A DNA stretch of 64,000 nt, from the NCBI GenBank assembly GCA_963693365.1, contig CAVNZM010000019.1, forward strand, positions 133,272 to 197,271. The letters are read 5' to 3'. The stretch is from Amoebidium appalachense. Its lineage: Eukaryota; Protista; Ichthyosporea. Below the pieces are notes generated by a model. The model did no database searches. It was not told the origin of the DNA and saw only the letters and a program-made list of their open reading frames with translations. The position numbers were made by a program, and so were the translations under genes. Below are positions 2,454 to 59,700 of this stretch, piece after piece; position 1 is the first letter of the stretch; each line of letters opens with the position of its first letter.

Positions 2454-2498
2454 GGGGGGAGGGGGGGGGGTACGTTGAGTCGGTGGAGTTGATAATCC

Positions 2499-2562: not shown

Positions 2563-2574
2563 GGGTCGGGCTGT

Positions 2575-3207: not shown

Positions 3208-3302
3208 CTTAGAATAGTGAACAAAAAGATTGGAGGGTGGGCCTTTTATAGTTTTGAGTAGGTGGGGGTGGGGCATTGATTATTTTCTGTGCTACAAGGA
3301 AG

Positions 3303-9144: not shown

Positions 9145-9240
9145 CCTTGCCTATAGCACAGAAAATATTTTTTTGCCCACACACACCTACTCAAAACTAT
9201 AAAAGGCCCACCCTCCAATCTTTTTGTTCACTATTCTAAG

Positions 9241-9873
9241 ATGACTGAAAGTGATGGGTCTGAAATCGTAACACGCCTTTTATACCAACCGGAAACCACA
9301 AAGCTCGGGGAGGACTGTGTGCTGACGGGAACCGACGTGATACTGGTGGTCCACATCTCCCGATTCGTAGACGGCCTACAAACAATCCTTGCAAGACAGA
9401 GCACATACCCCAACCACCGCCCAACACTTTATTTGTACGGCCACTCCCCGTGGCGTGCATACAAGTCTGCCTTGGACGACGGGAAGTCACGGGGGGTGCG
9501 CATACTTATTGATGATAGGATAGGCAAGTGGATAACAAGGCCGTGGACAAAAGACTCCAATCTACGACACAGCAAGGGATACGAGCTGGTGAAGCAGTTT
9601 TTTATTGAATTTTTGAAAGACGAAAACAACAGACACAAGTTCCCCCCGGGATCCCCCGTAAAAACATCATCTCTCTATGCACTGTATTCCGATTGGGTGA
9701 GACAACAAGGGTCAGACATGGAGGTTCACATGAACCTATGTGTATTTGGCAAAGTTCTAAGGCAAATATTCATGATGAAACCAGTAAGTACAAAGAAACT
9801 AAGTGCAAACAAGGTGACCATCAAGGCTCACAGATTCGACTACAATCACATGACTAAGTGTCTAGGGCTCTAA
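9241..9873 (+). CDS. Stand-alone winged-helix protein (copy of 2575-3207)
   Basis: Near-identical translation to the left-arm copy. Confidence 0.6.
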   Translation: MTESDGSEIVTRLLYQPETTKLGEDCVLTGTDVILVVHISRFVDGLQTILARQSTYPNHRPTLYLYGHSPWRAYKSALDDGKSRGVRILIDDRIGKWITRPWTKDSNLRHSKGYELVKQFFIEFLKDENNRHKFPPGSPVKTSSLYALYSDWVRQQGSDMEVHMNLCVFGKVLRQIFMMKPVSTKKLSANKVTIKAHRFDYNHMTKCLGL

Positions 9874-9993
9874 ATTGACCAATCAGAGGAATGTTCAGCC
9901 AACTGAACATTCGTCACGTGACCTTGATGACCCTGACCATCAAGGCCCACAGATTCGACTACATTCACATGACTAAGTGTCTAAAGCTCTAAA
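9815..9993. repeat. 60-bp direct duplication (9815-9874 / 9934-9993) bracketing a 59-bp palindromic insert
   Basis: TGACCATCAAGGC.CACAGATTCGACTACA...GCTCTAAA occurs twice here; the left arm has one copy and no insert. Confidence 0.85.
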
Positions 9994-10005
9994 CAGCCCC
10001 CCCCC

Positions 10006-11472: not shown

Positions 11473-12246
11473 TGTGATGAACGCGCCGTGAAGTTCGTAT
11501 GGAGAGTGAAGTTTGAAAGCTGTGCTCTGGTATACCCCTCCCTGAGAGCCAACACCAATAGCGTGCTGACCAATCAGACGCGTTGACCAATCAGACGTAC
11601 CGACCAATCAGACGTTTGGAGTGCCGACCAATCAGCGTGATGTCCAATCGGATAGAGGGTCTTGTATTCCTGTGGAAGATGACCGAAGGATCTGTAGCCA
11701 AGGCATGCAGCGTCTGATTGGCTCAGTTACAGCATTTGTGTTATTTTAAAATTGACTGGTTATGATACAGTATTGATGTGATGTGAACGTCGCGATTTAC
11801 AACACTCCAAGCACGCCAATTTGAAAACAAAACCGAAATATTAATTAGAAAACAATACAGAAATATTTAAACCCGATTTATACGAACATTTTTGCCATTG
11901 TTTTCCTATTGAACAGGTTGTTGTTTTAGTTTCTACTCAGAGTTCGGAAAAGCGACTCGCGGTCAGGGTTATAACCGAAAGGGGATCCCTGAAACAAAAA
12001 CCCTATATACATAGGATGTCTGTTTCGTTAAATCAAATTGACGGAGTTCGAACCTCCCATTCTTGTGGCTTTCACAACAGTTACTTCTTCTATAGCTTAT
12101 GCATTTCGTTTCATTTCAGTTGCAATTTATTGCGCCGAAGGACACTTTCGCACCCTGGCAAAGCCACTGGACCAATCAAATTGGCTATAGGACCCATATA
12201 ACACCATCACTGCTTCGGATGCTGCCAGTCTTGCAAACCTGCAGCT

Positions 12247-13263
12247 ATGAACCACAAGCCAAACGTTAACCTGTGGCGCCTGCGCGACAAGCTCTTCCAA
12301 GCGACAACACCGGCCAGCGAGGCAGCGCTCATGGGCGTTCCCGTCTTCGGCGAATTCGACATGCACTCGCCCCCAGCCAACATGCACTCGTTCCCCGCCA
12401 ACACAAAACCTGCACGCGCAATACCGCCCAAAGACGACTGCGTGCATGCACAGCCCTCCCAACCCCCTTTTGCAGTTGTGCACGCACCGCCCCTGTGCAG
12501 CAAGGACGTGCGAGTGTACCCGTTGCAGACAACATGGCCACCACCACCGGGCAAGATTCCGCTACGCAGGATTCTCCCGTACAAGACTTCAGGTGCTGCG
12601 GCCAGCGACGTGGAACAAAAGCAACGGGATGTATTTTATTGGAAGGCAGGGGCGAATCCAAGTAGACGTGGACGGTACTTACGCAAAAACAAGATGGGGG
12701 CCTCCAAAAAACTCACCTCCCCGCGCCTACCAGTGGCAGTCAACGCCGAACCCAACGCGCCCTGGCGACCACTCTCTTTTCCGGATTTGGACACGGAAGA
12801 GACCACAGAGGCAGCGGATAGGGAGAACGCAGCAGCGCCCCCAAGCAGCCAGGTGTGCGAAGCAGCAGCGCCCCCAAGCAGCCAGGTGTGCGAAGCAGCA
12901 CGCGAGCCGCTCGTGTACGAGGACCACAGTTCCGTCGACGTCGACGACCAGGTGGCCTTCACGGGGCAGATGGTATCCACGAGCAGCCCCCAGTCGGAGA
13001 CAACGGGAGAGCAGTGCGAGATCTGGGTGTCTGTCGATCGATCTCCGCACCCCCCATACATCTACTACAACGTGAAGCATGTCATAGTGCAAGTAACAAA
13101 CAAGGGTTCTAAAATACACATCGCATACGAGGAGGCCTCCTCCAACCAGCTGTGGCAACTGCAATTTAAGGACAACAAGAAGCCTTTGCATGTAGTCATA
13201 GGAGGCAATGGAGAAAACACTGTTGCGGTGAATGAGGTGTGGGTGTGCATTCGACCAGGATAG
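12247..13263 (+). CDS. Hypothetical protein with 11-aa tandem duplication (AAAPPSSQVCE x2)
   Basis: 338-aa ATG ORF whose 5' part is conserved in the left arm. Confidence 0.6.
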   Translation: MNHKPNVNLWRLRDKLFQATTPASEAALMGVPVFGEFDMHSPPANMHSFPANTKPARAIPPKDDCVHAQPSQPPFAVVHAPPLCSKDVRVYPLQTTWPPPPGKIPLRRILPYKTSGAAASDVEQKQRDVFYWKAGANPSRRGRYLRKNKMGASKKLTSPRLPVAVNAEPNAPWRPLSFPDLDTEETTEAADRENAAAPPSSQVCEAAAPPSSQVCEAAREPLVYEDHSSVDVDDQVAFTGQMVSTSSPQSETTGEQCEIWVSVDRSPHPPYIYYNVKHVIVQVTNKGSKIHIAYEEASSNQLWQLQFKDNKKPLHVVIGGNGENTVAVNEVWVCIRPG

Positions 13264-26492: not shown

Positions 26493-26647
26493 GGGCGTCA
26501 GCGAACAAGCGCCACCTTACGCACTGGAAGCTGGAAAATTCCAGAAAGCACAGGCTGGCTGTGATTGGAGGGCGTCAGCGAATAAGCGCCACCTTACGCA
26601 CTGGAAGCTGGAAAATTCCAGAAAGCACAGGCTGGCTGTGATTGGAG
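26493..26647. repeat. 77-bp tandem repeat in the KilA-N gene upstream region (CTGGAAAATTCCAG palindrome plus TGATTGG); repeated near 28432-28550
   Basis: GGGCGTCAGCG at 26493 and 26570; TATATAAA near 26724 and 28619. Confidence 0.8.
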
Positions 26648-26797
26648 ACGTAAGGAACGAATGGGCGGAGGGCGCATGACCAGGGATCGTGCGTGTCAAT
26701 TCTTGTGTGAGCCACCCCGCTACTATATAAACCTAATGTGCGCCTGGATGCTTCATTCTGCTATCAAGTACCGAACGAACAAACAACCTACGCAAAC

Positions 26798-28195
26798 ATG
26801 GAGTTCGACATGAACGTCGCTGTGCCCAAGGACGAGGTGGTCGCTGCCTCCCCACACCCGGCAACCCCTGCCTACCCCGCGTTCAAGGAGGTGCGCGCCC
26901 CGCCCGCCATGGACTTCGGCGACAAGGTGCTGACCGTGACCACCACCTACCCCAACGGGCACGTCTACTTCAACGGCACCATGCTGTGCAACGTGGGGCG
27001 CGAGTACAACACCGAGAAGGCGGGGGATGGCGCGGAGAAGAAGGTGGATGTGGAGCAAGAACATGGTGAAAACGTAAGATACAAAAAAAAAAGACTTTCC
27101 TTTGGCCAACTGCGCATCGATGACGTCATCGACACCACCAACTCCAAGAAGAAGTCCGGGGACCCAGCGCTGCGCGGCACCTTCGTTCACATCGCGCTGT
27201 TCCCGGCGCTTGCCCGCTACGTCTCCACCGACTTTGCCGTGCACACGGACGCACTGCTCTCGCGCATGTTCACGGGCGACTACACGGTGCTGGCGGACGT
27301 CATCGACATCTGCGACAGCTACAACGGGGCCACCACCAGCAAGATGGCCATCGACATGGACGAGGTGCGCGCTGCCCGGGCGGACACGGGTGAGCAGATG
27401 CTGGGCATGCTGACGTCGTTCTTCGACAGCAAGTTCATGCCGCTGCTCAAGGAGAAGAACGACACCATCAAGGATAAGAACCTCACCATCGACCTGCTGA
27501 ACATGGCCGTGCGTGAGAGCAAGGAGCTGGTGATGCAGCACAAGGAGCTGGACAAGCAGAAGACGCTGATGCTGCAGCAGGCCACACAGATCAACGTGGC
27601 CCTCATGGAGCAGTTCGAGAGCGACCCCAACACCCTCAACAAGCGCGTGTTGCCCAGCAGCCCCGACGGCTGCACGCTGGACGGGTACCCCCACCTGCGC
27701 GTGCGCCTGCTCAACCTCGGCAACAGCATCGTGGCGGCACTGTTCAAGGGCAGCACGGTGGGCCCGACCACTCTGTACCAGCAGTTTGTCGAGGGGATAC
27801 TCAACGTACAGGTGCTGGGACACGTCGTCGAGGACAGCGTGAACACGGTGATGGCGAGGTCGGTGCTGGCGGGCGCCATCAAGCTGCGAGCGGGGGCCTC
27901 GTGGGGCCGCAAGGTGAAGTACTGCACCGAGATCACCGCACGGATGGCCTACACGGTGGTGTACAACACGGAGGCATGGTTTGCCGAGAAGATGCCCGAG
28001 ATCAGCCAGACGTGCAGTTTCTACCGTACTAGGGTTCTGTTTGAAAAGGAGTTTCCGGGCATCAAGCCCCTAGACATAGAGGAAGAGCTTGAGCTCGTCC
28101 CCAAACCACGTACTAGACGTGTGAGGCGCACTGCTGTGCCCAAGAAATTCGACAGACGTGCGCAGTGCGCAGAGGCAGAGAAACAAAGCATGTAG
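26798..28195 (+). CDS. KilA-N domain protein with coiled coil and shared C-terminal domain
   Basis: NGHVYFNGTMLC...LRGTFVHIALFPALARYVSTDFAV matches the KilA-N pattern. Confidence 0.82.
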   Translation: MEFDMNVAVPKDEVVAASPHPATPAYPAFKEVRAPPAMDFGDKVLTVTTTYPNGHVYFNGTMLCNVGREYNTEKAGDGAEKKVDVEQEHGENVRYKKKRLSFGQLRIDDVIDTTNSKKKSGDPALRGTFVHIALFPALARYVSTDFAVHTDALLSRMFTGDYTVLADVIDICDSYNGATTSKMAIDMDEVRAARADTGEQMLGMLTSFFDSKFMPLLKEKNDTIKDKNLTIDLLNMAVRESKELVMQHKELDKQKTLMLQQATQINVALMEQFESDPNTLNKRVLPSSPDGCTLDGYPHLRVRLLNLGNSIVAALFKGSTVGPTTLYQQFVEGILNVQVLGHVVEDSVNTVMARSVLAGAIKLRAGASWGRKVKYCTEITARMAYTVVYNTEAWFAEKMPEISQTCSFYRTRVLFEKEFPGIKPLDIEEELELVPKPRTRRVRRTAVPKKFDRRAQCAEAEKQSM

Positions 28196-28692
28196 TGGGG
28201 GGAAGGGGGATCCAGACATTCATTTGTGTTCATGTTTACCTAAAACTTGCATCAATACATAGACATTTGGCAATATAAGAAGGACAATATATGACTGTAA
28301 AAAGGCAAATAAAGACTTTGCAAAAAACAATTAAAAACGCACTACATTATTCTTTTGCTGCGGGGCCGGCGTTTTGAGCGGGAGAGGGGCGCGAGGCATC
28401 GTCAGAGGATAGGTCCGACCGCCACCCGCATAGGAAGCTGGAAAATCCAGAAAGCACGCTGGCTGTGATTGGAGGGCGCAGCGAACAAGCGCCACCTTAC
28501 GCACTGGAAGCTGGAAATTCCAGAAAGCGCAGGCTGGCTGTGATTGGAGACGTAAGGAACGAATGGGCGGAGGCAATGCGCCAATGCGCAACAACCTACT
28601 TGTGAGCCACCCCGCCACTATATAAAGCCAATGTGCGCCTGGATGCTTCATTCTGCTTTCAAGTACCGATCGAACAAACAACCTACGCAAAC

Positions 28693-30231
28693 ATGGAGTT
28701 CGACATGAACGTCGCTGCGCCCAAGGAGGAGGTGGTCGCTGCCTCCCTACAGCCGGCAACCCCTGCCTACCCTGCGTTCAAGGAGGTGCGCGCCCCGCCC
28801 GCCATGGACTTCGGCGGCAAGGTGCTGACCGTGACCACCACCTACCCCAACGGGCACGTCTACTTCAACGGCACCATGCTGTGCAACGTGGGGCGCGAGT
28901 ACAACACCGAGAAGGCGGATAGGGATGGGGCCGAGAAGCAGGTGGCGTAGTGGAAGGTGCGCCATGCTGGGCTCATCAACAAGGTCCTGACCAAGATCAA
29001 CGAACCAATCAGAGGAATCCTGTCAAATGCCAGGATTCCTCCCATTGGTCAACTGCGCATCGATGACGTCATCGACACCTCGAATGCCAAGAAGAAGACC
29101 GGCGACCCAGCGCTGCGCGGCACCTTCGTTCACATCGCGCTGTTCCCGGCGCTTGCCCGCTACGTCTCGACGGACTTTGCCGTGCACACGGACGCACTGC
29201 TCTCGCGCATGTTCACGGGCGACTACACGGTGCTGGCGGACGTCATCGACATCTGCGACAACTACAACGGGGCCACCACCAGCAAGATGGCCATCGACAT
29301 GGATGAGGTGCGCGCTGCCCGGGCGGACCCTTCGAACGGCTTCCTCGATGCCATGCGCAGCTTCTTCGACAGCACCGTCAAGCCTATCATCGAGGAGAAG
29401 GACAACACCATTCGCGAGCTCAAGCGCACCTTCACCGAGATGCAGGAAGGCCAGGCCCAGGCCCTTGCTCTTGTGAAGGATGGTTATGAAAAGCAGATCG
29501 CCGTGTACGACGCCACCATGCGCGAGAAGGACACCATGCTACGCGAGAGGTCCCTCATGCTGGCACAAGCTAACCAGACCATTGCCCAGGCCAACCAGAC
29601 CATCGCTGAGCGCTCCCGTGTCAACCAGGCCCTGATGGAGCAGTTCGACTCCGATCCCAATACCATCAACCCACGCGTGCTCCCCACCGATGCAGACAAG
29701 TCCACGCTCAACGGCTACCCGCACCTCCGTGCACGCCTGAGCAACCTGCCCATCAGCATCGTCGGTGCGCTGTTTAACGGCGAGACCAAGGGGGCCATTG
29801 AGCTGGTGCAGGAGTTCACTAACAGCGTGCTCAACGTGGACGTGCTGGTGGCGTGCACCCGGCGCACTGTAAACACGCTCACAGCGCGCGGTGCCATCCA
29901 GAACGCCATCAAACTGCGTGCCGAGGCGTGGGGCACGCCTGTCCGCTACTGCACGGAGATCACGGCACGCCAGGCGTTCACGGTCATAAGCAACACGGAG
30001 ATGTGGATGGGTGACAACATGCCACACATTCTAGCGACCCATGGTTACGGCAACCTGCGTGCCATGATGGAGCGCCAGTTTCCGGGCATCAAGCCGCTGA
30101 CGGTCGAGGGTGTGACGCTTGAGGTAGTCCCCAGGCCGAAAAGGGCTAGGGCAGCGGGGGGGAGGCGTAACCGTGGGCGCAAACAGTCTGGGTCCCGCAG
30201 ATCAACACAAGATGCCAGTGTCTGCATGTAG
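28693..30231 (+). pseudogene. Tandem paralogue KilA-N gene with in-frame TAG at 28948-28950
   Basis: ORFs 28633-28950 and 28957-30231 are in the same frame (KQVA*WKVRH); promoter and 5' part duplicate the 26798 gene. Confidence 0.75.
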
Positions 30232-30758: not shown

Positions 30759-32431
30759 TCAATCGAATTCATTTGGTGGAGTGGCATTTGCAAGTTTCGT
30801 GTAGTCGACCAAGTAAGCCTTGTTTCGCGGGTGTGGATATTCGCCGTTTAGGCGCACAGGATAATGTCCATTCGGGGGGGAAACCGAACGCCCCAACACG
30901 TGCTTGAGCGCGGCGCCGAGTTTTTTCTGGCCGGGAATCCTTCTGTCGATGTTGTTTGCAGCGGCCCAGCGCCGCAGCAGCGCAACAAACGTCGTGGTTG
31001 TCATGTACATACCCTCGTAGTCATCCCAATCCTCGCACACCTCCTCGCGCCTCCCCATGTCGTGGAAGAACTCATACTCAACCGGAAGGGGGTCTGTGAG
31101 GTCCTGAAGCCTGCGCTTGAGTCCGGTCATAGGCGGCAGGATGCGTACACGATCATTGAGGTCGATCCGCATGAGGTAGTGGTAGAGATGCTCTAGCCCC
31201 GATGCATCTCCCTCGGTGTAGGCGGCTGCCAGCTCGTTGAAGTAGTCGTGATCCCCAACCCTGGCAGGGGATACCTCCATGCACGCGTAGCGGCGGTCTG
31301 TCCGGGACACGGGAATGGGGTGCTCCTCGTTGCTGAGCAGGATCCAGCGCTCACACGACTTGATGGTAGTAACGGGCAGTCCCTTTCTCTCCATGGACAT
31401 CCTGTCGTCCGTGATGAGTGTCTTGAGGTGGTTGGGGATGCGGTGACTCTTGCCATAGGTGACCTATGGAAACAGGACGTGTTAGCATGATCTGCTTCAT
31501 ATGAATCTACACCCCCACCCCCCAAACAACATATGCATGCGCTTCCAGTGTGTGCATCCGAGCATGGCGCGCGTGTGTGTAGCGCTTCTAAAGAGATGGG
31601 TCTTGGGCGCTTCTTCATGTGTGTGTGTGCGCTAATCCAATTAGCACACAGGCTTCTCACCTCGTTACACAGGACCAGCAGCTTGAACGAATAGCCCTCA
31701 TTGAACCTCGTGTCGATCCGGTGCTCGTTCTCGACGGTGCCAACCAGGTGCATGCCTAGCATCTGCTTGATGATCGTGCAGAACACATCCTTGCCTGTGC
31801 CCTCAATGGAGCGCAGCAGCAACCCGCACTGGGGCTTGCGCTCCGGCACCTGGACAAGGTGAGCGAGCCACTGCATCAGGAAGTCGAACAAGCGCTCGTC
31901 GCGGTTGCAGATGATGTACTTGGTGTGGTAGAGGAAGCGCTGCAGTTTCTCTTCCTCGATTTCAAAGTTCTCGCGGTAGCGAAAGCGAAAACCTGGAAAC
32001 ATGTTGAAAACGCGGTTGAGGCTGTGCAAGTAGATGTCCCTGCGCACACCGGTTCTTGGCTCGGGGTCGGAGGGGTCGAAGACAAGATGGGCATAGGTGA
32101 GCCGGCGGCCACTGGAGAGGTAAAGGGTGCCGCGCAGGGGTGGCTGGGGGTCCCCGTCTTCGTTTGGGGGCTGTGGAAACTCAAAGGCCTCGAGAAATAC
32201 GCGGACCTGGTCACGTGTCTTGAGCTCAAACGTAACAGGGAGGCCGTCGATGTTGCGCGTTTTGTGGATGAATGCATTGGGGGTTGCTACATAGGCAATG
32301 TGCTTGCTGATGTAGTCGCACACCTCTTGTTCGCTCCATGCATGTCTGCTCCTGCACACATCGGGATGGAGAAAATCATCGGCGTTGTCACCAAGGTCGT
32401 GTGTCGCCTCAAACCTGGCAAAGTAATCCAT
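30759..32431 (-). CDS. SF3 helicase (D5/DUF5906-like), two exons: complement(join(30759..31463,31661..32431)), 491 aa
   Basis: Walker A RSIEGTGKD. Intron 31464-31660 has GAG|GTGAGA, branch GCTAAC and TTTCCATAG. Splicing gives LLVLCNE-VTYGKSHRIPNHLKTLIT, collinear with the paralogue LLVVCDEVVWGGSHELNNIMKARIT. Confidence 0.88.
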
Positions 32432-32760
32432 CTTGGACACATACACTCCACACAGCAAACTGCGTGTGTGAGCTGTGCTGTTTGTGACGGTTCTTGAACT
32501 CTGACAGAACTTTTGAAAAGTGTGCCGGAATTCTATTGGTGAATTGAAGAGCAGGTAGGAATCCGACAGCCCATTGGTCCGAAAATTTGGCCTGATGCGA
32601 TTGGCCAGAAAATCGAGCCAATCGTTTCTCGCATTCCTTTCTGCTCTCACTCAGATCACCAAGTGACCAGCTGGAACCGCGAGCTTATAACAAGCAACAA
32701 CTGAGCGTGTGTCTAACACGTCCTTCCTCTGTCCCCCTCCTGTACCTCAAACCCACCAAC

Positions 32761-33192: not shown

Positions 33193-33939
33193 ATGGGGCT
33201 TAGCGAGGCAAACTACTATGCTGGTCTGGTGTCGTTTGGGACGTTAATGCTTTTACTGTATGAACTTCGCATGCCCCGCTTTCAGTACCGGGACTTTCTT
33301 GACCTCATGGTGGTTCTTGATTCGCTGGCCTTTCTGGTGTTCTATATTGCAAGCACACATGAAGGATGCTCTGCCTACAATGCGTATCTTGCTGCTGACC
33401 TTCTGTGGTGCTTCAAGGACGCGTGCAAGTATGCATACATCATAGACCACGCATGTTCGCTGTCCCAGTTGCATGTTGCATGGCTCGACCTTGCTGTGTT
33501 TTTGACTTCCTCGGTGCTCTATCTGGTCTTTGTTATATACACATATGTTCTGCCGACACAGTGCCATGTACCTCCACATCACAATGCTGTCTCCCTTGTA
33601 GTTCTGTACTGCTTTTGGACGACAGTGTGTATTGCCTCGGTGGCCATGCTGTTTGCGCGCTTCTCATATCTGTGGTCTAATCGCCACCTGCTTATTGGTG
33701 AGAGGTCTCGTGGACTCTGCTGGCAGGTGCTGGTGGGCTCCACAGCGACAGCGCTTGCAACAATGGCCACTGCAGCGGCCACATCGTTTTCAGTTTCGAG
33801 AACCATTGGGACGTCCGTTATTGACTGTGCGAATCTACTGTTTGTGTTTTCACAACTGATGCTCTTTGTGGGCCACGACCGTGGTGATCTTGCCGAGCTC
33901 AAGGCGCGTGAGCCATTCCAGTCACAAGCTCGCTGCTGA
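33193..33939 (+). CDS. Seven-transmembrane, GPCR-like protein
   Basis: Seven hydrophobic segments by eye; Cys at the start of TM3 (HEGC) and after TM4 (TQC). Confidence 0.6.
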   Translation: MGLSEANYYAGLVSFGTLMLLLYELRMPRFQYRDFLDLMVVLDSLAFLVFYIASTHEGCSAYNAYLAADLLWCFKDACKYAYIIDHACSLSQLHVAWLDLAVFLTSSVLYLVFVIYTYVLPTQCHVPPHHNAVSLVVLYCFWTTVCIASVAMLFARFSYLWSNRHLLIGERSRGLCWQVLVGSTATALATMATAAATSFSVSRTIGTSVIDCANLLFVFSQLMLFVGHDRGDLAELKAREPFQSQARC

Positions 33940-34032
33940 TTGGGCGGCCTCATGCTTAAAAGGCCGCGCTCCTGTCTGCCCAGTGTCAGATCAACAACCA
34001 CAAACACACATGCGAGTTGCACAAGTTTCATC

Positions 34033-34728
34033 ATGGAAGCCATCGAAGTCATGCTTCTGCACCACGCTGCCGCTATGGCTAGAACCATGCCACCAGCATT
34101 TACGGTAGCCGTCTACGGCCCCGCACCCAAGGCCTATGCGGTGATGGCGTCAATCCTCAAAGCCTGTGACCCGTTTTGCGAGGGGCGCGAAGACGTGTCC
34201 AAGTGCCACGTGATGGCCTCGGCCATTGCCCCCTTCATCGTAGACCCAATGACCATCAACACAGAGTGGGACATTGCGGCGCAGCTGCGCACTCAGGCGC
34301 TCCTGAAGGTCACCTCCCTGCTCCGTCTAGGAACACACTTCAGTGTTGTGCTGGGGGGTTCCGGTGTGCTTGGCCTGGCCGCTGGGGCCAACGAGATTGT
34401 AGATTGCCAGGTCACCTACGCGGGCTTCGGTATGCTGCTAGCATCGGCGACAACCCCGTACACAAGCACCATGTGGTGGCTGTGCTCGCAGGCGGGGTTT
34501 CTCTTTATTCTGCACAAGTTTGCGGTCCTGGCCAGCCTGGAGCGGCTGGCGCGCGAGAAGGTGGAGGCGGAACTGACGGCAACCCAGGTGCGGCTGGCAG
34601 CAGTGGAGGACCAGATGCACCGCCACCCAGTCACTGTGGCAGGGGCGTTCACGATTGTGGGGCGGGCCGCACAGCTGGGTCGCGAGCTGACTGCCAAGCA
34701 GGTGGAATCTATCCGCACGAAGCTGTGA
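34033..34728 (+). CDS. Hypothetical protein, possibly a degenerate AntA/MSV199-like domain plus coiled coil
   Basis: GTHFSVVLGG...VDCQVTYAGFGMLL followed by a heptad-like helix. Confidence 0.45.
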   Translation: MEAIEVMLLHHAAAMARTMPPAFTVAVYGPAPKAYAVMASILKACDPFCEGREDVSKCHVMASAIAPFIVDPMTINTEWDIAAQLRTQALLKVTSLLRLGTHFSVVLGGSGVLGLAAGANEIVDCQVTYAGFGMLLASATTPYTSTMWWLCSQAGFLFILHKFAVLASLERLAREKVEAELTATQVRLAAVEDQMHRHPVTVAGAFTIVGRAAQLGRELTAKQVESIRTKL

Positions 34729-34917
34729 TGCCGTGAAGCCCAAGCCCAAGAGCTTCCTGCAGGACGTCAACGAACGTGGGCAGCTCTACCACAGACGTGT
34801 GTACTCGGTAGGAGACTTGGGGGCAGCGGATGGTTTGATTCGTTCATGTGCCGGCCTGGAGCCGTGCGCCCTGTAGAGAGCCCCGTGTGACCAAATAAAA
34901 TCCGTGCATACAGGGAA

Positions 34918-35271
34918 ATGCGTTGGGCCCGCCCACTGACCCTTGACGAGGTGCTGTGCGATCGCGTTGCACTTCGCTCTTTCCGGGTGTTTCTGGGGCG
35001 GGAGTATGCGGGAGAAAACATAGACTTTCTGGACATGCTCATGCGCTACAAGGCGGACCCTTGTATGTCCCTGGCCTTGCTCATTCATGACTGGTACCTT
35101 GCGCGTGATGCCCCTTACCCCCTCAACATCTCCGAGCATGCACGCAAGCGCACTGTTGTCCCGCTTGGCCGCCTGCATGCCGATGTGTTCAACGACGCAG
35201 AGCGCGAGGTGCGGGCGCTGCTGCAGGGGGAAAAGCTTCCGCGCTTCGTGCGCGAGTACGCCCCCTCGTGA
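34918..35271 (+). CDS. Stand-alone RGS (regulator of G-protein signalling) domain protein
   Basis: LDEVL.D...FRVFLGREYAGENIDFL...IHDWYLARDAPYPLNIS...VFNDAEREVRALL...LPRF is a complete RGS box, including EN and the LNI Asn. Confidence 0.92.
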   Translation: MRWARPLTLDEVLCDRVALRSFRVFLGREYAGENIDFLDMLMRYKADPCMSLALLIHDWYLARDAPYPLNISEHARKRTVVPLGRLHADVFNDAEREVRALLQGEKLPRFVREYAPS

Positions 35272-36082
35272 GCGCAGGAAGGGCGGTGAAGGTGTGCAAC
35301 ACCAGCCCTCCGAGCAGAACTACCACCAAGCCCTGGGCGACAAACAGTGCGTATGCAATGCACCCGTGCCAGAAGAAGTCGATTGTGGTGGCCGACCAGA
35401 TGATCTGGTCAAGGGCAACGGCCACCGCACTAACCACCGAATAGCAGGTAGCGCACACGAGCACGCCCCGCACAATGCCGGTATCTGGGATAGCCGTGTG
35501 CCGTATGGCACGGTCCACGTAGACGCACGCCGCAACCAGAAGAACTGCAATCACGTACTGTGTGCCCATGTGAAAGTCCGAGTATGTCTCATAAGAGCAG
35601 GTGTCATAGCACGTACAAACCCCCACCAAACCCAGGACGAATGCCGGTGCCATGACGACGAGCGGGGCCCAGGTGGCCACGCCGGGTGGCTGTTTGACAC
35701 CACAAAGGAGGATGTCCTTGTTCCCTGTGATGTGGCAGGATATGCGAAGCAGCAGTCCCAGGGGCGAGAGGAGCATGAGCAGCTTTGTCACCCAATACAA
35801 CACCCACAGACGACAGTCACACGCGGTGTGTGGTGCTGTCGCATAGACCACCCACTGGTACATGTGCGCCGCTATGCAGATGGCCGGCAGATGAAACAGG
35901 TACACCGAGTTTACCGTGGCGCTAAGATACCTCCCCCTCACCTTGGGGCCAAAGCGTTTGTGGATGCATACGTGCAGCGCGAAAGCTATCCCCGTGATCG
36001 CCGAAGCGTACACAAACAGCAGCAGCCTGAATATGGACGCAACATGCTCTAGTGTCTGCTTGCTCAGCTCGGTTGTCGGCAT
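35189..36082 (-). CDS. Seven-transmembrane protein resembling the 7TM part of 7TM-RGS receptors
   Basis: Seven hydrophobic segments, Cys before TM3 and after TM4, and D.GI before TM6. It converges on and overlaps the RGS ORF. Confidence 0.6.
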   Translation of the reverse strand: MPTTELSKQTLEHVASIFRLLLFVYASAITGIAFALHVCIHKRFGPKVRGRYLSATVNSVYLFHLPAICIAAHMYQWVVYATAPHTACDCRLWVLYWVTKLLMLLSPLGLLLRISCHITGNKDILLCGVKQPPGVATWAPLVVMAPAFVLGLVGVCTCYDTCSYETYSDFHMGTQYVIAVLLVAACVYVDRAIRHTAIPDTGIVRGVLVCATCYSVVSAVAVALDQIIWSATTIDFFWHGCIAYALFVAQGLVVVLLGGLVLHTFTALPALTRGRTRARSAEAFPPAAAPAPRALRR

Positions 36083-36264
36083 GTACTACCGCGCAGAACA
36101 ATTAGTGTGGCGTATGCTAATGCGTAACCTTGTGCCAACCTAACCCCCCCCCCCCAACCCCGCCATCTGCACATACAGACGTACCACAACCAGGACAGTA
36201 ATTAATTCGATGCACGTGTGACACGGAGGTGAGTGCACGGAAACAGGCCTGCCCTAAATTATCT

Positions 36265-37092
36265 ATGCCAAGTCTTGACATGGACCGCGAGGAGACGAGC
36301 TCGTACGACACCACGGGGGGCCTCTGTCTCGGTTGGTACCCCCCGCTGCCAACCTTCTGGCATGCCGCGTCCGACCAGCCACCCGAGGAGGAGCTTGCGG
36401 AGGCCACCATTATGTTCAGAAACAACCTGGAGGCGTTTGCTGGCATTCCCCGCAACAGACACATCACGCGCAACTACGCCACGTTCAAGACAAACTTGTT
36501 CCTGGACAGCCTACCGGAGAAGTGCGAGTTCAGCCGGGCTAACTTTACGGGCAAGAAGCGCATGCGCTGCTACGAGAACGCGCTCAGTTATTCAACGGCA
36601 TCCATGGCGCGCCCGTGTCACATTGATGCAACCTTCATTAATATGGTGGCTGCACTGTGTGAGGGCCGTGAGGCATTCTCCCCCCGCACACAGCACGTTG
36701 TCGGCCTGGGTGGTCAGGCCACGGTAGCGCCGGAGCTGATTCCGGTGGCAGCCGCGGACCTCTTGGATACTTTGCAGTTTCGTGAGGAAGAGGCCAGCGC
36801 GTCACACCTGCTCCACCTGTGCCGACAGGCAGCGCTCTGGATGGGACGTATGAGTATCATCCATGCGCTCAAGGACGACGTGGACAACATGGCATTTATG
36901 GTTATAACAGTTTCGGCTATTCTAAGTCAGTACTCTCTCGGGCCACTCCTTTTTGGAAACGTGTTTAGGCGCTGCATTGAGCTGGGCGCGGCAGAGAATC
37001 CACCCAGCTATGAGCTGCTGGCGCGCTGGCTGCTGGAGGCTGTGTACTCCAACATGCGCAACGCGGCTGTGGTGCTTGACCTGATCTCGTGA
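36265..37092 (+). CDS. Fic/Fido-fold protein with degenerate catalytic motif
   Basis: PRTQHVVG...APELIP...AALWMGRMSIIHALKDDVDN follows the Fido layout, with HALKDDVDN in place of HPFxDGNGR. Confidence 0.55.
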   Translation: MPSLDMDREETSSYDTTGGLCLGWYPPLPTFWHAASDQPPEEELAEATIMFRNNLEAFAGIPRNRHITRNYATFKTNLFLDSLPEKCEFSRANFTGKKRMRCYENALSYSTASMARPCHIDATFINMVAALCEGREAFSPRTQHVVGLGGQATVAPELIPVAAADLLDTLQFREEEASASHLLHLCRQAALWMGRMSIIHALKDDVDNMAFMVITVSAILSQYSLGPLLFGNVFRRCIELGAAENPPSYELLARWLLEAVYSNMRNAAVVLDLIS

Positions 37093-37621
37093 GCCATGAT
37101 CAAAGTTGGGGGGGGGGGGGGGGGGGGGGGGGGGCTGGCCGTGGGCCAAAGCTTGCATCTTCATGTATGCATATATGGGCATATAGCCAGATCCAACCTG
37201 GTCTTAGTAGATCACCATGTACCAAAGTTGGAATATGTGTCAAGATATTCAGTCAGGTTTTATTGCTTGAAATCTGCAGCTGGGTGGCTCAGGATATAAA
37301 TTTTCTGTAACGAAAACTTTACTCATGCTAGTTGATATAACCCAAACCAAATCCCATGTATCGCTATACAGAGCAAATATTAACACGAAAGAGAAACATA
37401 AATCTATCAGATAAGGGGTCATAAGGGCTGGTGGTGGCAAAATGTGTGTTTTTACGTGAGCATTATACGTGAGGTTACGTGAGCGCTACAAGCGCACGTC
37501 AGTCACTGACGTCACCAAGGCTGAGCCATGGCCCATTTTTAATTTGTTATAAATTGGGCCAATCGGACCGCGTTTTCGAACAATAAATTCGGCCAATCGG
37601 ATCGCGTCGCGCGATTCCACA

Positions 37622-42524: not shown

Positions 42525-44596
42525 ATGAGCATAGCCCAACAAAATATTCAGCGCCAGCTGCATGCCCTGGAAGCCCTTGGCCAGCGCGACCAGCGCTACC
42601 CACCCGGGCAGCCCCCTAATCAGCGCGATCTTATGGTCCTTGGGCAGCGCGACGGGGGGGGGGCAGGGCCGTGTTCGGCGCGATCTCAATGTCATGGGGA
42701 ACCCCCCGCAATCTTCCGAGGAGACCCGCTATGACAGTGTTGCCCTGTGCAATGCCGGTGCGCCGACCTCTGTTCTTTCCCAAGACACAAACCTAGATGT
42801 TCGGGACTCCTGTACATTGGAGCACATGACCGTCCACGACCTGTGCACTATCGGGCCTTCTACGGACACGTTGCACATGCGCCTGGAAATAGGGGGGGAG
42901 GTGTATTCGAAGGAAATCAAACTGGACCACGGCCCATATGAATTAAATGATCTTGTCAAGATGCTGGAGACTACATTGAATCACAGCAGACCGTGTGCTA
43001 AAAACCTCGGCCTATCCAACGCTGTTCCTACGGTTGTTGGGCACGGCTATGCGCTGCGTGGGAGCGCCCTTGTAGGCAACGCGCCAATGTATGTACGCTA
43101 TGACCTAGAAGGCCCCATGGCATTAGTTGCTCAGTTAAGGCGTATGCAGTACCAAGACCCGAATGCCATTCTTGTCGTGGGCGGACTTGTTGGGGACCAC
43201 AGACACCACCATACCCGAAAAATCTGCCGCGGCTGTTGTGTATCGCTTTACGTCACAAACACTTCCAGATGTTGAACTGATTGATGAACCGGGTTCGTCG
43301 CTGCTCATTTTTCCGCACAAGGCATCGTATGGCGAAAGGCTCTTACTTTACGAGCCCAATGCCGTCCTCGATCCGACCAGTCTGGTCAAGGGCACAATTC
43401 CAAGGGATGTTTATGAGTACGACTTCTTGTATGCACTGAAAGAAACCGAGGTTCTTCCTGACTCGGACTTTCAGCACCGGGACCACTGGGCGCTATGGCC
43501 AGCCCCAGTATGGCAGGCCTTGCAGGTGGCGCTGGCCATCTCCTCACGGGACGAAACCCTGGTATCAAGGGCTCTTTTCTACATGGTCGAGTCTCAGGTT
43601 TTTATACGCGTCGTTGTCAGCCACACAAACTACGAACAGAACGGGGTCCTATTCGGTTCAACAGAGGCTGACCCCTATATCAAAGCAAACTTCTTGGTTA
43701 CCAACGTACACGGCCTCACTATTCCATTCAACATCCCCACAGATCTGCGGCCAAACCTGTTTGAACCGGACAAGTTCCTTTCATCCATTTACCAAGACCC
43801 ACTCGACGACGCCGACGCGGAACCGTACCCGTTGTATCACTTTTCTGTGCGGAGTGTCCAGCAGCTTTCTGATGCCATTGTCAATGTCAATCCCCCACCA
43901 CCCTTTTCTACGTATGAGCGTCTCGACAGCTACGATGATATCATGATCGAGACCGTAGAACTGGCCGCAGTATATCTACAGGTTTTCCCCCGTGAGGTCG
44001 ACCTCGGTGCCTGGCGCAGACTCCTCTTCAACATCCAGATGGACCCCCATAACTACACTCACATGTTTCGCGGACGGATTGTGATATCATTGAGACCCTT
44101 TTTTGCGTATTTCAAAGCCAGCGCGAGGCTGTCCTACGCGCTACTCTTCAGCACCAGAAGCATCACCTTCTCGTTCTCCGGCCCTGCTGCCCGGTCTCTG
44201 GGGCTGCAGAACAACGTGTGCAGCAAGGACCCCTTTGTCGATCGTCCTGTGCTCCTGGTCCCTCCCTGGGGGCAGCAGGGTACAATATCGCCTGGGCCGT
44301 TCGGGCACGCCACCAGCATGCTGCAGGCAATCCCGTACACCCGTGAGACACCGCCCAAGCGACTGTTTGTGCACCTGGACGTCAACAACACCCGGGTCAA
44401 GGGCAACGTGCGGGGGCTGCGCGCGCTGGCCGTGGTCCCGACACAGAAGGCGGTGAACGATGTGTACGAGCCCGTCATGCCGATCTACACGTCGTTGGTG
44501 GGCTGTGGTTCCATCCGCACCATCGGGGTGTCGATCGAGGACGAGCATGGCACGCCCATAACGGGGGAGTACACTGTCATGCTGCGGTTGAAATAA
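42525..44596 (+). CDS. Penton-like (single jelly-roll) minor capsid protein with large insertion; frameshifts at G-runs near 42660 and 43193
   Basis: N-part IKLDHGPYELNDLVKMLETTLN. C-part LFVHLDV...LAVVP...YEPVMPIYTSL...IRTIGVSIEDEHGTPI...VMLRLK is typical of Bamfordvirae pentons. AATAAA at the stop. Confidence 0.58.
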
Positions 44597-46126: not shown

Positions 46127-46834
46127 CTACAAAGGGGCCACCGTGCGGTTGTGAATGTGCTGTTCCAGCAAGCGGCTGGTCTCGGTGAGCGCGGGGTAGA
46201 AGGCGTCCTGCAGGTGCTCCGTCATGACGCGCTTGCGGTTGGATTTGCGGCACAGCGCCAGGGCTTCGGTTAGGACGCACTCGGTGAAGGATTGGATTAT
46301 GCACGCGCAGGCGATGCCACTGATGACACTGACGCGCCACTTGACGGTAGGGTCAAGAGCGAGAAGGGTGTTGCGAAACCGTGATGGGGGGAACACCAAC
46401 TTGCACCTGCGCGTAATGGTGGTGCGCGTGCCGACAGTCAGGTTGTTGTCCTCGTACAGGGCGAGGCTCTCCTGAATGCGCGTCAACATGCCACGCACCA
46501 CGCTGTCCGAAAGGAACACGCGGGCGGCCCCGACCACGTGCCTGAGCTTGACGGTGACGTGGCGTGCGTCGCCCAGCATGTGTACGATGCACATGCCGAT
46601 CTTTTCCTGTAGTGCGGTCTGGAACATGTTGAGGTAGTCCAGGGCGTGTTTGTTTATGGCAAGCGTAGACATGCGTTTGAGCAGGCGGTATGTGTAGGCA
46701 TTGTAGGACTTGCACTTTTCCCGGGGCAAAAGCGCGTCAGGGGACGGAAACGCCGTGTCGGGGTAGTAGCACGGTAGCACCTCGGGCAGGCAGTTCAGCA
46801 CGCCGTTGTTCTGCGCATGGCATGGTATCTCCAT
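46127..46834 (-). CDS. Histone doublet H2B-H2A
   Basis: SYNAYTYRLLKR...INKHALDYLNMF...TVKLRHVVGAARVFL is H2B-like. It is followed by TITRRCKLVFPPSRF...RVS...NRKRVMTEHLQ, which is H2A-like. Confidence 0.85.
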   Translation of the reverse strand: MEIPCHAQNNGVLNCLPEVLPCYYPDTAFPSPDALLPREKCKSYNAYTYRLLKRMSTLAINKHALDYLNMFQTALQEKIGMCIVHMLGDARHVTVKLRHVVGAARVFLSDSVVRGMLTRIQESLALYEDNNLTVGTRTTITRRCKLVFPPSRFRNTLLALDPTVKWRVSVISGIACACIIQSFTECVLTEALALCRKSNRKRVMTEHLQDAFYPALTETSRLLEQHIHNRTVAPL

Positions 46835-49778: not shown

Positions 49779-50483
49779 TCAGTCCTCGTTGCCGTACGAC
49801 TGGAACTTCCTGTCGCCCGCCCGGAAGCGGATGGACGGCTCGGCCCGCCAGTAGTAGAGCTTGTCCTCGGGGCGATTTGACTTGTGGGTGCGGTCCAGGA
49901 CCAGGATGCCGTAGTTCTGGGTGTACTCATTCAGCAGCTCGTTGAACTCCCTGAAGGACTCGATGAAGCCGAAGAAGCTCTCCCACAGCTTCCGGCGTTC
50001 CAGCTGGCTGTCCTCGGCGAACACGAAGAGACAGTTGATGTTGTTGCGGTACTCGGGCGGGATGCTCTTTGCGTACTGGATGCTCATGAGGTAGAACCAG
50101 TTGAAGTGGCGGCCGTTGAAGAAGATCTGGCGGATGGTGGGGTCGTTCTTGAGCTGCTTGTCGTAGATGACGTCCTCGGCAATGCAGAAGATGTTTGGGG
50201 AGGTGCGCTTGGTCCAGCCCTTGACCCTGTCCTTCTGGCGCTCATAGAGCTGGCGCAGCTCGGTGGGGCGGAACTCGTTGTAGATGAACGCCTTGTTGAG
50301 GAAGCGGCCCCAGAACTGGTTGCCGTCCTCGGTGGCGCTCATGGCGATGCCGGCGCTCAGGTACTTGCGCTTGTGGTAGAGGACGTTGGCCATGGCGATG
50401 CTCTTGCCGCTGCCGCGGGGCCCGACAAAGACGCACACGGCCTCGGGAGGGATGGTGTTTGGGTAGAACGGCTGGAGCTTCAT
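49779..50483 (-). CDS. A32: A32-like genome packaging ATPase
   Basis: GPRGSGKS, ATEDGN.FW, IAEDV, FFNGRH, SIQY and PPEYRNNI. Confidence 0.95.
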   Translation of the reverse strand: MKLQPFYPNTIPPEAVCVFVGPRGSGKSIAMANVLYHKRKYLSAGIAMSATEDGNQFWGRFLNKAFIYNEFRPTELRQLYERQKDRVKGWTKRTSPNIFCIAEDVIYDKQLKNDPTIRQIFFNGRHFNWFYLMSIQYAKSIPPEYRNNINCLFVFAEDSQLERRKLWESFFGFIESFREFNELLNEYTQNYGILVLDRTHKSNRPEDKLYYWRAEPSIRFRAGDRKFQSYGNED

Positions 50484-51130
50484 GTCTGCAGTAGGGCGAG
50501 AAATCATCTGGGCGAGGCACAAGTCAAGCAAAGGCACAAGAGAACGGCAAGCGTGAGGTAACCCGGCAAACGGGTGGGGGTATTATCTATCCCCACTGTG
50601 ATGACCTCACCATCCCCTCCCACGCACCGTGGCCCCAGCCCCCCCCTGCCCCTCGCCCTGAAGGGGGTGAATAGAATTGGCGCGGGCCACCTACCAAGAG
50701 CTCCGCAAACGGGCGCGCCGCCCCCGCGCCCGCCCCGCCCCCCGTTTAGCACCCCCGCACCATCATTTCGGCTGCACCGGCAACAAGCCCGCCGGCAAGC
50801 GCGACAAAACCCGTGATCCTACCAACTGCCGCTGGCGCCCCTTAGACAGGGACCATGCCACGCCATGGAGGCCACGTAAGACACTTGTCCGTGAGCACGC
50901 GTGACATGCGGCGCACTGGAACAAGGACCACGACGTCCCAACTCCTCATCAGAGTGCAATATCTGATAAGCATGTGGTGTGTGTGTGTGTGTGTGTTGTG
51001 GGGGGGGGGTTACAACTTCTTTCCCTTCTGCTTCCTGTGTTTTTTCGGTCTCTGTTTATTTTGAAAAGCTGTCAGCCTCCACACAAAACACCTTCTTCAT
51101 CCGTGCCATACCCGTGGCCAATAAAAGCTT

Positions 51131-56497: not shown

Positions 56498-56719
56498 TCA
56501 CAACCTCGAACCTACAAACACGTCGATATCGTGACGAGAGAACGGCTTGTTTCTGTAGCGGCGTGTCACTTGGGCCTCCAGTCTGCGAGTGGTGGCGTTG
56601 TCCACGTTGCTGCGGCTTTTATACTTACGCATCACGGCGCTGAAAATGCGCTGGAGGTTGCGGTTGCCAGTCAGGCGGAGGAGGCCGAACCGTTTGAGCT
56701 TGCGCTTGGCGAATGGCAT
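56498..56719 (-). CDS. Small highly basic protein
   Basis: 73 aa, K/R-rich. Confidence 0.4.
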   Translation of the reverse strand: MPFAKRKLKRFGLLRLTGNRNLQRIFSAVMRKYKSRSNVDNATTRRLEAQVTRRYRNKPFSRHDIDVFVGSRL

Positions 56720-59700
56720 AGTGCCAGGTGAAATTATTTACGGGCGTGGACATCTGCGACTGCGGGTTGGGGAACGGCGAGGGCGGGGGCGGTATCAGGT
56801 AGGCATGGCTCAGCGGGGGCCTGGCGGAAATTGCCTGCGCCTGTGTGTTAAACCGGAGCTGCTCGGGGGATGGCATGTGCGGGAAGGGAGTCCCGGGCGA
56901 ACCCAACGTGTTCGTGGATGGGACAAAGGACAGTGGCTGCAGCGGGATTGCGGGCCGTGGCAGGATACGCCTCGGTCCGGGATGAGCTCTCCCTGGAGAC
57001 CACATCTGGCTGTAGGCTGTACCCAAAACGCTTTGACCTTCCGGGGGCTGCTCAGTGCGCGACCGCTTGGCCCCACCGCCCGGGCCGGAGACCTCATCCT
57101 GGTCTTCAGACCGCGTACGCTTCCGGGGAGATCGAGGAGGCGGTGCAGGCGTCGGCGGGTCCAAACTCATGGGGGTCATGGGGTTGTAAGAGTCCAAACT
57201 CGCGGGGGTCAGGGGGTTGTAAGAATCCAGGTCCATAGGGACCTGAGGGTTCAAGTACTCGCGCTGGTGGATGGCCTGGTTCGGGTCGGGCGCAGATTGG
57301 GGCGGGTCGGGGACCTTTTCCTTTTCCTTCTCCTTCGCGGCTTCTTTTGCTCTTGTGCTGACACGCTTGTCGTATATGGCCGCAAACATAGGGTTTATGT
57401 TGTCCGTAGCACTCACGCGGCCCGCTTTGCTCCGCAGATGGTCCAGATCATCGCGGACTTTCATGCTCTCGTGCAGTTCGGCCTTCAGTTTCTCGTTGAG
57501 GGCCGCCAGCACTTTATCCGCCCTGTCTCGGGCGGCCTGGAGGACCGCGGGATTGGACGTGAGGACCTCTGGAAGCACAGGGGTGGCTGGGGCCTGGGGC
57601 TTCACAGGCTTCTGCTTGGCAGGACGCTGTGTGGCTACCAGCTCCTTCCGCTGCCAGGCCTTTGGGTCCGTGCTGAACAGCTGCCATCGGGGATCTCCGG
57701 TGGTGGGGGCGGTGCGCGTGTACGCACGCGCCAGGTCGGTGGTGGCGTGCCCCCTGTTGAGGGCATCGATGACGGCCGTGCGTCCCGTTTCGGTCAGCCG
57801 CCACAGGGCGCCGGCGTGGCTGATAAAGCACGCGGGGTTCTCCAGTATGCTGTTGCGCAGGCGGCGCAGCTGGGACCGTGGCCAGTTCGGGTTATCGGGC
57901 CACTTGAGGGGTTTGTCCTGGGGGTTTGTGATCTTGACAACGCGAGTGTAGATGGTGCCTTCTGGTGCAAAGAAGCCCATGCGGTCCTTGCGGATGTTGG
58001 CGTTGCGGGTGATGTTGATGGGCAGACCATAGCCGCACTTCTTCATCCAGTTGACGATGTAGTCCGGGTTCCGCTCGATCAGTGAGCAGCCGTCCTGGAT
58101 CAGCTTGCGAAGGTGGTAGTAGGTCTTGGGGTAGTGGGAGCGCACGTGCTGCTTGACAAAGCCGATGGCCAACTCGGCGACGTTGTACTTGGAGTTGTAG
58201 GGGGGGAGCCACTGGAAGCGCCAATGCTTGCTCACGGCGAGCTGCCTGATGTCCGGCAAGTTTTCCTTGGTGTTGTGCACGGGGGCGTTGTCCATGCACA
58301 GGATTGCGCCGTTCGTGCGTGGGTCGGCCCCCAGGACGTACTCCAAGAACACGTAGAACGCACGACCGTCAAGCTCGTCAGGCACCAGGCTTTCGTTGGA
58401 AAGCTCGGCTTGGGGCTCGCGGCCGTGGGGGGCGAGAGGCCGGTAGTTGAACAGCGGGTCGTCGGACGGCCGAGGACTGAGAATCAGGTAGTTGACCACG
58501 GCCCGCATGTTTCCATCGTTGTCCGCCTTGGGGAACCCCACGGAAATCAGCAGCTTTGTGCCGATGCCGCGCAGCTTGGGCTTGGGGGTTTTGTGATGCG
58601 AGCCGCGGTGCCCCCACACGCGGCCAGGGGTCTCATCCAGGTACACGGAGGCCTCGTCGATGAAAAGCAGATTCTGGCGGTTGTCCTGCAGGTGTGGCAA
58701 GCGCTCGACCTCAAAGTACTGGGTGGCGGCAGCCACGGACCTTACAAAGGTGTTTGTCGGGTCGCCCTCCCCACGGCGGTACGTCAGCCCAAGCCGCTTG
58801 CGCCACTTGTTGAGCGTGGACACCGACACGTTCATGCGCTCGGATTCGGGCAGGCCAGGCAGTGCGTTGTAGGCGGCCATGAGCTTCTCGCTGGTCAGGT
58901 TGGGTACCTTGGTCGTGAGCTCGTAGAGCACGATCTTCTGTGTGTCCGTCAGCTTGGTGGATTTCTCATGGGCCCTTGCGAGGTTGGTGCCGTGCCGGCT
59001 GCTGAACTCGCCGTGCTTGAGGGCACGTGCTATTACCCGCCGCACGGTCTGCGTGCTGACCTTGAGCCTCTGTGCGGTGTCCGTGAGCCTCTCGTCCCGC
59101 AGGTGCGCAAGCAGGATGGCATCGCGGATGTCCTGCGTGTATGCCTTCCCACGGCCCAGGCGTCCTACGGGCTGTTCGGCAGTTCTCAGCGTGTGCACTT
59201 CGACGTCTGCGGGCAGGGGCTGTGCGAGGGGTTCCTCCCCGTACCAACGCCCCCCGGCACCAGCAGCAGGCGGGCGCCCCCGGGGCCCACCACCCACAGG
59301 GCCTCCTCTGCCCCCAGGGCGACCTTGTTGTCGGGGAGGAGCCTCAGCGTGAAGGAGCCTTTCGATGCCACGGTGCTTCGGGATGGCAGGGGTTCATAGA
59401 CCACGGAGCGGACAGGCGAAGGGCTGTCAGGCGCGTCGACGTTGAGAAGATCACCTGTGGACTCCAAGGGCATCAGCCGCTGGCGCTCCAGCTGGTACAG
59501 CGCCAGAGGGGGGTTTCCCCCGGGCTGGGGTGGGTAGAACCCCGCGACCGTGGCCTTAGACTTGTACACAACGGGCCTGCCCGTGTGCTCGATGACGTGC
59601 ATCGCCACGAGCATTGCGCGCGGGACAAAGCGGTCGAGCCTGACGACCAGGTACGTCATCGGCCGGAAGTGCTTGGAGATGTGCGGATCCACAAACACGA

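Follow-up and report, generated by a model that had tools for sequence, protein, structure and literature searches.

The stretch analysed here (the window) comprises 64,000 nt of Amoebidium appalachense contig CAVNZM010000019.1 and carries, at positions 33193–37092, an island of five open reading frames (ORFs) that is a real, selected gene cluster of virus type. The core of this island is likely to be a split version of the seven-transmembrane (7TM) RGS receptors, with a stand-alone RGS box and a 7TM protein encoded on opposite strands. With a probability of roughly 0.55, these two convergent, overlapping genes would derive from a single captured 7TM-RGS gene, the freed RGS domain acting as a signal-independent brake on the α subunit of the host G protein (Gα).

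The four ORFs that a preliminary description had placed within 4 kb were all present in the ORF list: TM1 (33193–33939, + strand; 248 aa, a predicted 7TM protein with its N terminus outside), RGS (34918–35271, +; 117 aa, a stand-alone RGS box), TM2 (35189–36082, −; 297 aa, a 7TM protein) and a Fic-like ORF (36265–37092, +; 275 aa, a helical protein). A fifth ORF, missing from that description, lies inside the island between TM1 and RGS (33952–34728, +; 258 aa) and starts 12 nt past the TM1 stop codon. The tail-to-tail overlap of RGS with a 7TM gene was borne out, RGS and TM2 sharing 83 nt in antisense orientation (35189–35271, both strands). As had been proposed, the two seven-segment ORFs are distinct: TM2 has seven clear segments and TM1 five clear and two weak ones, and no mutual similarity was detected.

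The RGS box is complete and stand-alone, as claimed. The ORF matched Pfam PF00615 with an E value of 2.8e-13 (50.7 bits, cut-off 23.9), residues 9–112 aligning to profile positions 2–110 of 117, and 26 RGS chains in the PDB matched at E ≤ 0.001, the best being RGS5 (E = 6.6e-9). It extends from just ahead of the first helix to five residues past the final one; since the box is complete and only nine open codons lie upstream of the ATG, the ORF is no fragment of a longer frame. N70, in the α5–α6 loop, corresponds in the alignment to the VNID Asn of RGS5, a residue with a role in the GTPase-activating protein (GAP) function of RGS domains. E33 (in YAGEN) aligns by hand count, via the common YAGE, with Glu320 of AtRGS1, which is required for GAP activity (PMC12017998, in excerpt), and the motifs NISxH and HxDxFNxAxxE were seen by eye to be common to the island RGS and plant RGS boxes. 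GAP function is predicted from the retained GAP Glu and the complete box. A Ser-rich C-terminal tail is absent, the window copy stopping five residues past the box, and no second RGS box was found in the window. The RGS motifs would fit an origin in the same 7TM-RGS source as TM2; a non-plant donor is possible, as 7TM-RGS proteins are also present in chytrids, filastereans and ichthyosporeans (PMC3971589, in excerpt).

TM2 has seven hydrophobic segments (mean Kyte–Doolittle values 1.45–2.33), and its single-sequence model consisted of seven long helices at low confidence (predicted local distance difference test, pLDDT, of 50). With helix bounds placed by hand in an N-out 7TM model, 2 Lys and Arg residues fall outside and 17 inside. 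C88 and C90 lie at the top of helix 3 and C162 in the second outside loop; in TM1 the corresponding places are held by C59 and C124, and in both proteins this is presumably the disulfide pattern of G-protein-coupled receptors (GPCRs). The likeness of TM2 to AtRGS1 was checked against 19 rows of plant 7TM-RGS proteins (figure S3 of PMC3386157). All eight plant motifs occur in order in TM2 and none in TM1. They read IHK (residue 40), CRLW (90), PLGLLL (107), SCHI (115), PLVVMAP (140), HMGTQ (171), AIRH (192) and RGVLV (205) in TM2, and IHK, CYLW, PLGFGLL, SCRI (SCHI in Selaginella), PLVLLP or PLVLMP, HMGTQ (Prunus), AIRH or AVRH and RGILV or KGILV in the plant rows (PMC3386157). By hand count, the motif offsets from TM2 to AtRGS1 stay between +2 and +17 residues across about 190 residues, and TM2 107–130 aligns without gaps to AtRGS1 94–117 with 10 of 24 residues identical. 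On this evidence, which is strong but not formal because the motifs were chosen after both sides had been seen, TM2 is likely to share ancestry with the receptor part of plant-type 7TM-RGS proteins.

A diverged second copy of the island was found in sequencing data. Contigs from runs X12, X13, X19 and X20 carry both the window version and a version of about 83 % identity. A 2117-nt X19 contig, matched between two mappings by equal length and depth, contains the 3′ part of RGS, a piece of TM2 and the Fic-like gene in the same order as the window, with 40 differences in 232 positions of the RGS 3′ part and 88 in 546 of the Fic-like gene. A 2070-nt X12 contig maps piecewise along TM1 and the middle ORF, and a further TM1-like contig from X12 keeps the reading frame to either side of a 49-nt match. 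Read by hand, the loose ends of the second copy are in frame, sharing 7 of 10 residues with RGS and 4 of 9 with TM2, and the TM2 copy is in frame at both mapped ends. The layout has thus existed long enough for the copies to differ by about 17 %, and it is no assembly error.

Among the differences listed, which sample 32 of the 39–40 places in the RGS region and 33 of the 88 in the Fic-like gene, third codon positions accounted for 17 of 28 in RGS (p = 0.003) and 23 of 33 in the Fic-like gene (p = 2e-5). Synonymous changes, counted by hand, made up 10 of 21 changed codons in RGS (p = 0.03) and 21 of 28 in the Fic-like gene (p = 3e-9), against a neutral expectation of about one-quarter that ignores transition bias; in RGS residues 93–110 all six changed codons were synonymous (p = 3.5e-4). 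The pattern indicates strong purifying selection on the Fic-like gene. In the 83-nt overlap, third-position changes numbered 8 of 12 in the RGS frame and 5 of 16 in the TM2 frame, the latter including places just beyond the RGS stop. Changes thus fall in third positions of the RGS frame but not of the TM2 frame, so RGS is the selected frame, and the 28-residue tail of TM2, which runs antisense across the RGS 3′ end, is therefore a passenger. The RGS stop codon (35269–35271) is absent from the second copy. Because the diverged copy is collinear in independent samples and its changes are mostly synonymous, the RGS–TM2–Fic-like layout is selected rather than an artefact. The suggestion of a split 7TM-RGS receptor in the preliminary description gained support from this copy and from the TM2 motif series.

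Contig depth over 35086–35317 flips between runs, the window-type and diverged versions standing at about 1457 and 231 in X12, 462 and 66 in X13, 6 and 49 in X19, and 5 and 62 in X20; the side of the island next to the D5-like gene (below) matches in X19 and X20 at depth 63–68, depth being no copy number. The flip could reflect recombinant haplotypes or an amplified element. The island was present in 20 of the 24 runs listed (four named studies and nine rows without a study, dated 2011–2024), 18 of them with at least half of its words.

The RGS domain of the Arabidopsis receptor is anchored by the 7TM part and keeps a self-activating Gα off, and ligand-triggered phosphorylation and endocytosis lift this brake (PMC3718340, in excerpt). 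By analogy with AtRGS1, a receptor of host type would hold its RGS domain at the membrane through the 7TM part, and ligand would pull the receptor off Gα. A viral RGS protein free of 7TM part, linker and phosphorylated tail could not be removed by this host switch, and Gα would stay GDP-bound through infection, whatever the signals outside. TM2, and perhaps TM1, may persist as a decoy, capturing ligand or host receptor partners, or as a sensor. TM2 and RGS lie on opposite strands and therefore cannot be joined by read-through or cis-splicing; the convergent overlap recurs with the same layout in the second copy, and no 7TM-RGS fusion in one polypeptide was found. Such a convergent layout would be the expected remnant of an inverted RGS half. 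No convincing inverted repeats and no inversion breakpoints were found at the RGS flanks, and an invertible RGS segment was rejected for want of such repeats and of any strand-change joint among the contig joints listed.

A fuller reading is offered tentatively, namely that this is the first virus-encoded RGS protein, in which a 7TM-RGS gene was captured, its RGS half inverted and both halves kept in a five-gene island that silences or reroutes the Gα cycle of the infected host; beside RGS and TM2, the island would then hold a second 7TM protein, a degenerate opsin-like protein and a pseudo-Fic.

The two halves might instead reassemble in trans, TM2 binding RGS non-covalently, which would give the virus a ligand-controlled brake on host Gα and hence a sensor of its own in place of a constitutive silencer. 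In each of the two copies the halves have stayed together, and TM2 retains the outside-loop motif HMGTQ and the Cys residues that a sensor would need. Against this, the linker through which the two parts are coupled in plant proteins (PMC12017998, in excerpt) is absent, the TM2 tail being unconstrained antisense sequence and only nine codons being open ahead of the RGS ATG, which makes a trans-acting receptor unlikely.

Several observations weigh against derivation of RGS and TM2 from one captured gene, in addition to the partial sampling of differences and the simple neutral expectation already given. A shuffle test in which 0 of 20,000 sequences reached five of the eight motifs in any order overstates the significance, the motifs having been picked with both sequences in view. 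The C-terminal part of RGS (EKLPRF and the last helix) is animal-like, not plant-like, and the Asp of the animal ‘EKDS’ is replaced by Glu. No match to TM2 at E ≤ 0.001 was returned by phmmer from 1.84 billion proteins, and a VIA search with the TM2 model gave generic four-helix bundles. In a Foldseek search with that model, proposed earlier as a check, GPCRs filled 37 of 49 rows, but all at E of at least 0.53 and from a model of pLDDT 50, with no match at E ≤ 0.001; single-sequence models are too poor for fold calls, and the absence of Fido or GPCR fold matches is no evidence. A word-indexed search of a set of 5.8 billion proteins gave no homologue of TM2, RGS or the Fic-like protein; only candidates of near-equal length could come up, and a fused 7TM-RGS protein therefore could not have appeared for the RGS query. 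The check for synteny in other viruses had a mixed outcome: IMG/VR scans with RGS, the Fic-like ORF, the middle ORF, TM2 and TM1 found no relatives of any island gene, and the diverged collinear copy did turn up in sequencing runs. That copy comes from the same few samples and is the sole evidence of synteny; with a single sister copy, the case for a conserved module is thin. The one IMG/VR match in the scans with island genes, A32 and PCNA (locus L001) was a chance match in a phage. Of the metagenome loci, L004 belongs to the polymerase region of a phage, L002 shows no ORF where it matches and L003 is the same match as L002. GTDB scans with the Fic-like ORF and the ligase gave no relatives, and plasmid tblastn yielded nothing useful.

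Alternatively, an RGS gene, two unrelated membrane proteins and a helical protein might have been captured independently and come to lie together in a variable gene island by chance or linkage, with no pathway in common, the likeness of TM2 to plant motifs being convergent. TM1, TM2 and the Fic-like protein lack significant HMMER or fold matches, and in a lone second copy of about 83 % identity gene order can persist through descent alone. Against convergence stand the polar words HMGTQ, SCHI, AIRH and IHK in order and spacing, beside an RGS with plant-like motifs, and independent capture is improbable.

Capture of a single 7TM-RGS gene can be set against known systems. With plant 7TM-RGS proteins (AtRGS1 and orthologues; PMC3386157 and PMC3718340, in excerpt) the island shares the ordered motifs of TM2, the YAGE with its GAP Glu and the NISxH of RGS, and the predicted logic of receptor and GAP; it differs in having two opposite-strand genes, no linker or phosphorylated C-terminal tail, a viral context and a similarity below HMMER significance. 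In Setaria italica a 7TM-RGS gene is likewise divided into a soluble RGS and a 7TM part; there, however, transposons split the gene and the 7TM remnant was suggested to be a pseudogene (PMC3386157, in excerpt), whereas the 7TM ORF of the island is intact, runs antisense, occurs in two diverged copies and belongs to a virus-type element. Small animal RGS proteins of the R4 type (RGS5, RGS2 and RGS16) gave the best PDB matches and also consist of a stand-alone box, but the island RGS lacks their N-terminal membrane-targeting extension and has plant-like motifs in its N-terminal two-thirds. Herpesvirus GPCRs (KSHV-GPCR and that of herpesvirus saimiri) are likewise 7TM proteins encoded by viruses, through which G-protein signalling of the host is rewired, and poxviruses too carry viral GPCRs; unlike the island proteins, which show no likeness to chemokine receptors and are predicted to inhibit through a GAP, those are chemokine-receptor-like activators. 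Giant endogenous viral elements of Amoebidium (PMC11244446, in excerpt) resemble the window in being intron-poor, gene-dense islands with A32, D5, PCNA and DNA methylases, with several diverged insertions per genome and a captured catalytic domain that lacks partner domains (a KDM4-like JmjC).

The main text of PMC11244446 does not mention RGS, G proteins, receptors or Fic, and two of its supplementary files contain no RGS, Fic, 7tm or GPCR entry. The accessible part of a 2023 review of cellular genes in giant viruses (PMC10583209) mentions neither RGS nor heterotrimeric G proteins, and nothing relevant on viral RGS proteins or giant-virus G-protein modules was found in the literature within reach of the search, which left out most subscription papers. 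Viruses are known to activate G-protein signalling by means of captured GPCRs; a GAP with which a virus switched it off would represent the reverse strategy. If true, the island would also offer a natural test of what either half of a 7TM-RGS protein can do without the other, of whether the two act in trans and of whether protist hosts share plant-type 7TM domains, and it would point to Gα signalling as a host defence in a protist or alga, or as something that the virus needs quiet.

The earlier description of the last island gene as Fido-like was not confirmed. No match was found in Pfam, the NCBIfam Fic families, the PHROGs Fic families or the PDB, and the catalytic motif HPFx[D/E]GN[G/K]R (PMC2686095) is absent, residues 200–208 reading HALKDDVDN and failing both strict and relaxed patterns; a role as GTPase modifier is likewise unsupported. 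The Fido-like layout of the 275-aa protein was recognised by eye only: as in Fic/Doc/AvrB proteins (PMC2686095), a His-x-x-x-Asp follows a helix and the C-terminal half is all-helical, whereas the motif lacks its Pro, Phe, Gly-Asn and Arg and there is no profile or fold match. Its model (pLDDT 35.6) had no informative fold match, being too poor for fold calls. The protein is best not classed as Fic; it may have a Fido fold devoid of catalytic activity, and it is probably a non-AMPylating helical partner.

TM1 has five segments above a Kyte–Doolittle value of 1.2 and two weaker ones (1.18 and 0.90); under the hand-placed N-out model, 1 Lys or Arg residue lies outside and 11 inside, with C59 at the top of helix 3 and C124 in the second outside loop. 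No relatives were found in Pfam, the PDB or IMG/VR, and diverged in-frame copies occur in run X12. The middle ORF had no Pfam match, and its best PDB rows were microbial rhodopsins (E = 0.026 and 0.009 for two sub-regions), which took the top 4 of 10 rows (E 0.009–1.2) over helices C–E only. By eye, ELTAK at residues 245–249 resembles DVTAK, but the region of helix F is polar. The ORF is covered piecewise by the diverged X12 contig and has a variant with an in-frame deletion of 6 nt. A type-1 (microbial) rhodopsin-like protein, possibly a degenerate opsin, is a weak and rather doubtful lead that emerged from several searches. A class III cyclase, suggested by certain motifs, was dropped as no match was found. 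Splicing of TM1 to the middle ORF also seems unlikely: none of the 11 in-frame GT–AG pairs was compelling, and the best donor (33909) is altered in X12.

The viral-type flanks described for the island were confirmed, with genes typical of nucleocytoplasmic large DNA viruses (NCLDVs) on both sides. Among 47 window ORFs compared with Pfam, matches included KilA-N, a D5-type helicase, a C5 methylase, a PL14 lyase, a short ligase, T5orf172, PCNA and a DDE transposase, with DUF5906 at E = 6e-20. On the left, a D5-like primase-helicase gene (30759–32431, −) consists of two exons separated by a canonical spliceosomal GT–AG intron of 197 nt (31464–31660, −; GTGAGA...CCATAG, with a branch-like CTAAC at −22) that sits exactly at the junction of two tblastn pieces. 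The assertion that introns are lacking is thus correct for the ORFs of the island as read but fails for this neighbour, and the element therefore needs a spliceosome at least there. Other D5 copies in the window lack the 197-nt intron. The right flank (40781–61840) carries the C5 DNA methylase, PL14 lyase, short DNA ligase, T5orf172 and other NCLDV-type genes, including an A32-like ATPase (49779–50507; Pox_A32 at E = 0.003, below the cut-off) and PCNA (61055–61840; E = 2e-19), both without relatives in IMG/VR. Neither a major capsid protein nor a family-B polymerase was matched among the 47 ORFs, none of which was clearly recognised as a host-type gene, and no host gene or host-chromosome junction was found in the window. 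A DDE_3 (Tc1/IS630-type) transposase whose long tail is of low complexity (56625–58880, −) lies inside the viral-type region, and microsatellites cluster at 13.6–25.5 kb of the window; together with the intron, these suggest a location in a nucleus. The likeliest setting is a eukaryote genome that carries an element of NCLDV type, and the element is probably endogenous.

The island might then be a silent relic, either a passive portion of an old integrated element or a group of adjoining host genes, with selection that was viral and past or is the host's and present, a reading to which the microsatellites, duplications and transposase, the presence of the island in data sets of 2011–2024 and the silence in culture of most genes of Amoebidium giant-virus insertions (PMC11244446, in excerpt) lend weight, but which the five intact ORFs, intronless as read, and the NCLDV-type genes to the left and right, none of the 47 ORFs scanned being recognised as host-type, make hardly probable.

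An H2B–H2A histone doublet in the right flank (46127–46834, −) matches H2B–H2A fusions, with a best PDB E value of 5e-6. Because the Amoebidium insertions are reported to be histone-free (PMC11244446, in excerpt), a difference from the window, the doublet suggests either another host or virus or a divergent gene overlooked in those insertions.

Elsewhere in the window, positions 1–4454 and 7997–12472 form a 4.45-kb inverted duplication of 94 % identity (F-box-like, unknown and D5 genes) that encloses another D5 gene and a C2H2 zinc-finger gene. Tandem KilA-N genes at 26510–30231 are 85 % identical over about 1 kb, the second being split into two ORFs. A 477-aa ORF (43163–44596, +) has no Pfam or PHROGs match; its C terminus resembles that of a penton or minor capsid protein. 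CCAAT-box-like words flank the island at 32600–32622 and 37549–37607, two of them within a 25-nt direct repeat, and similar words occur in other intergenic gaps.

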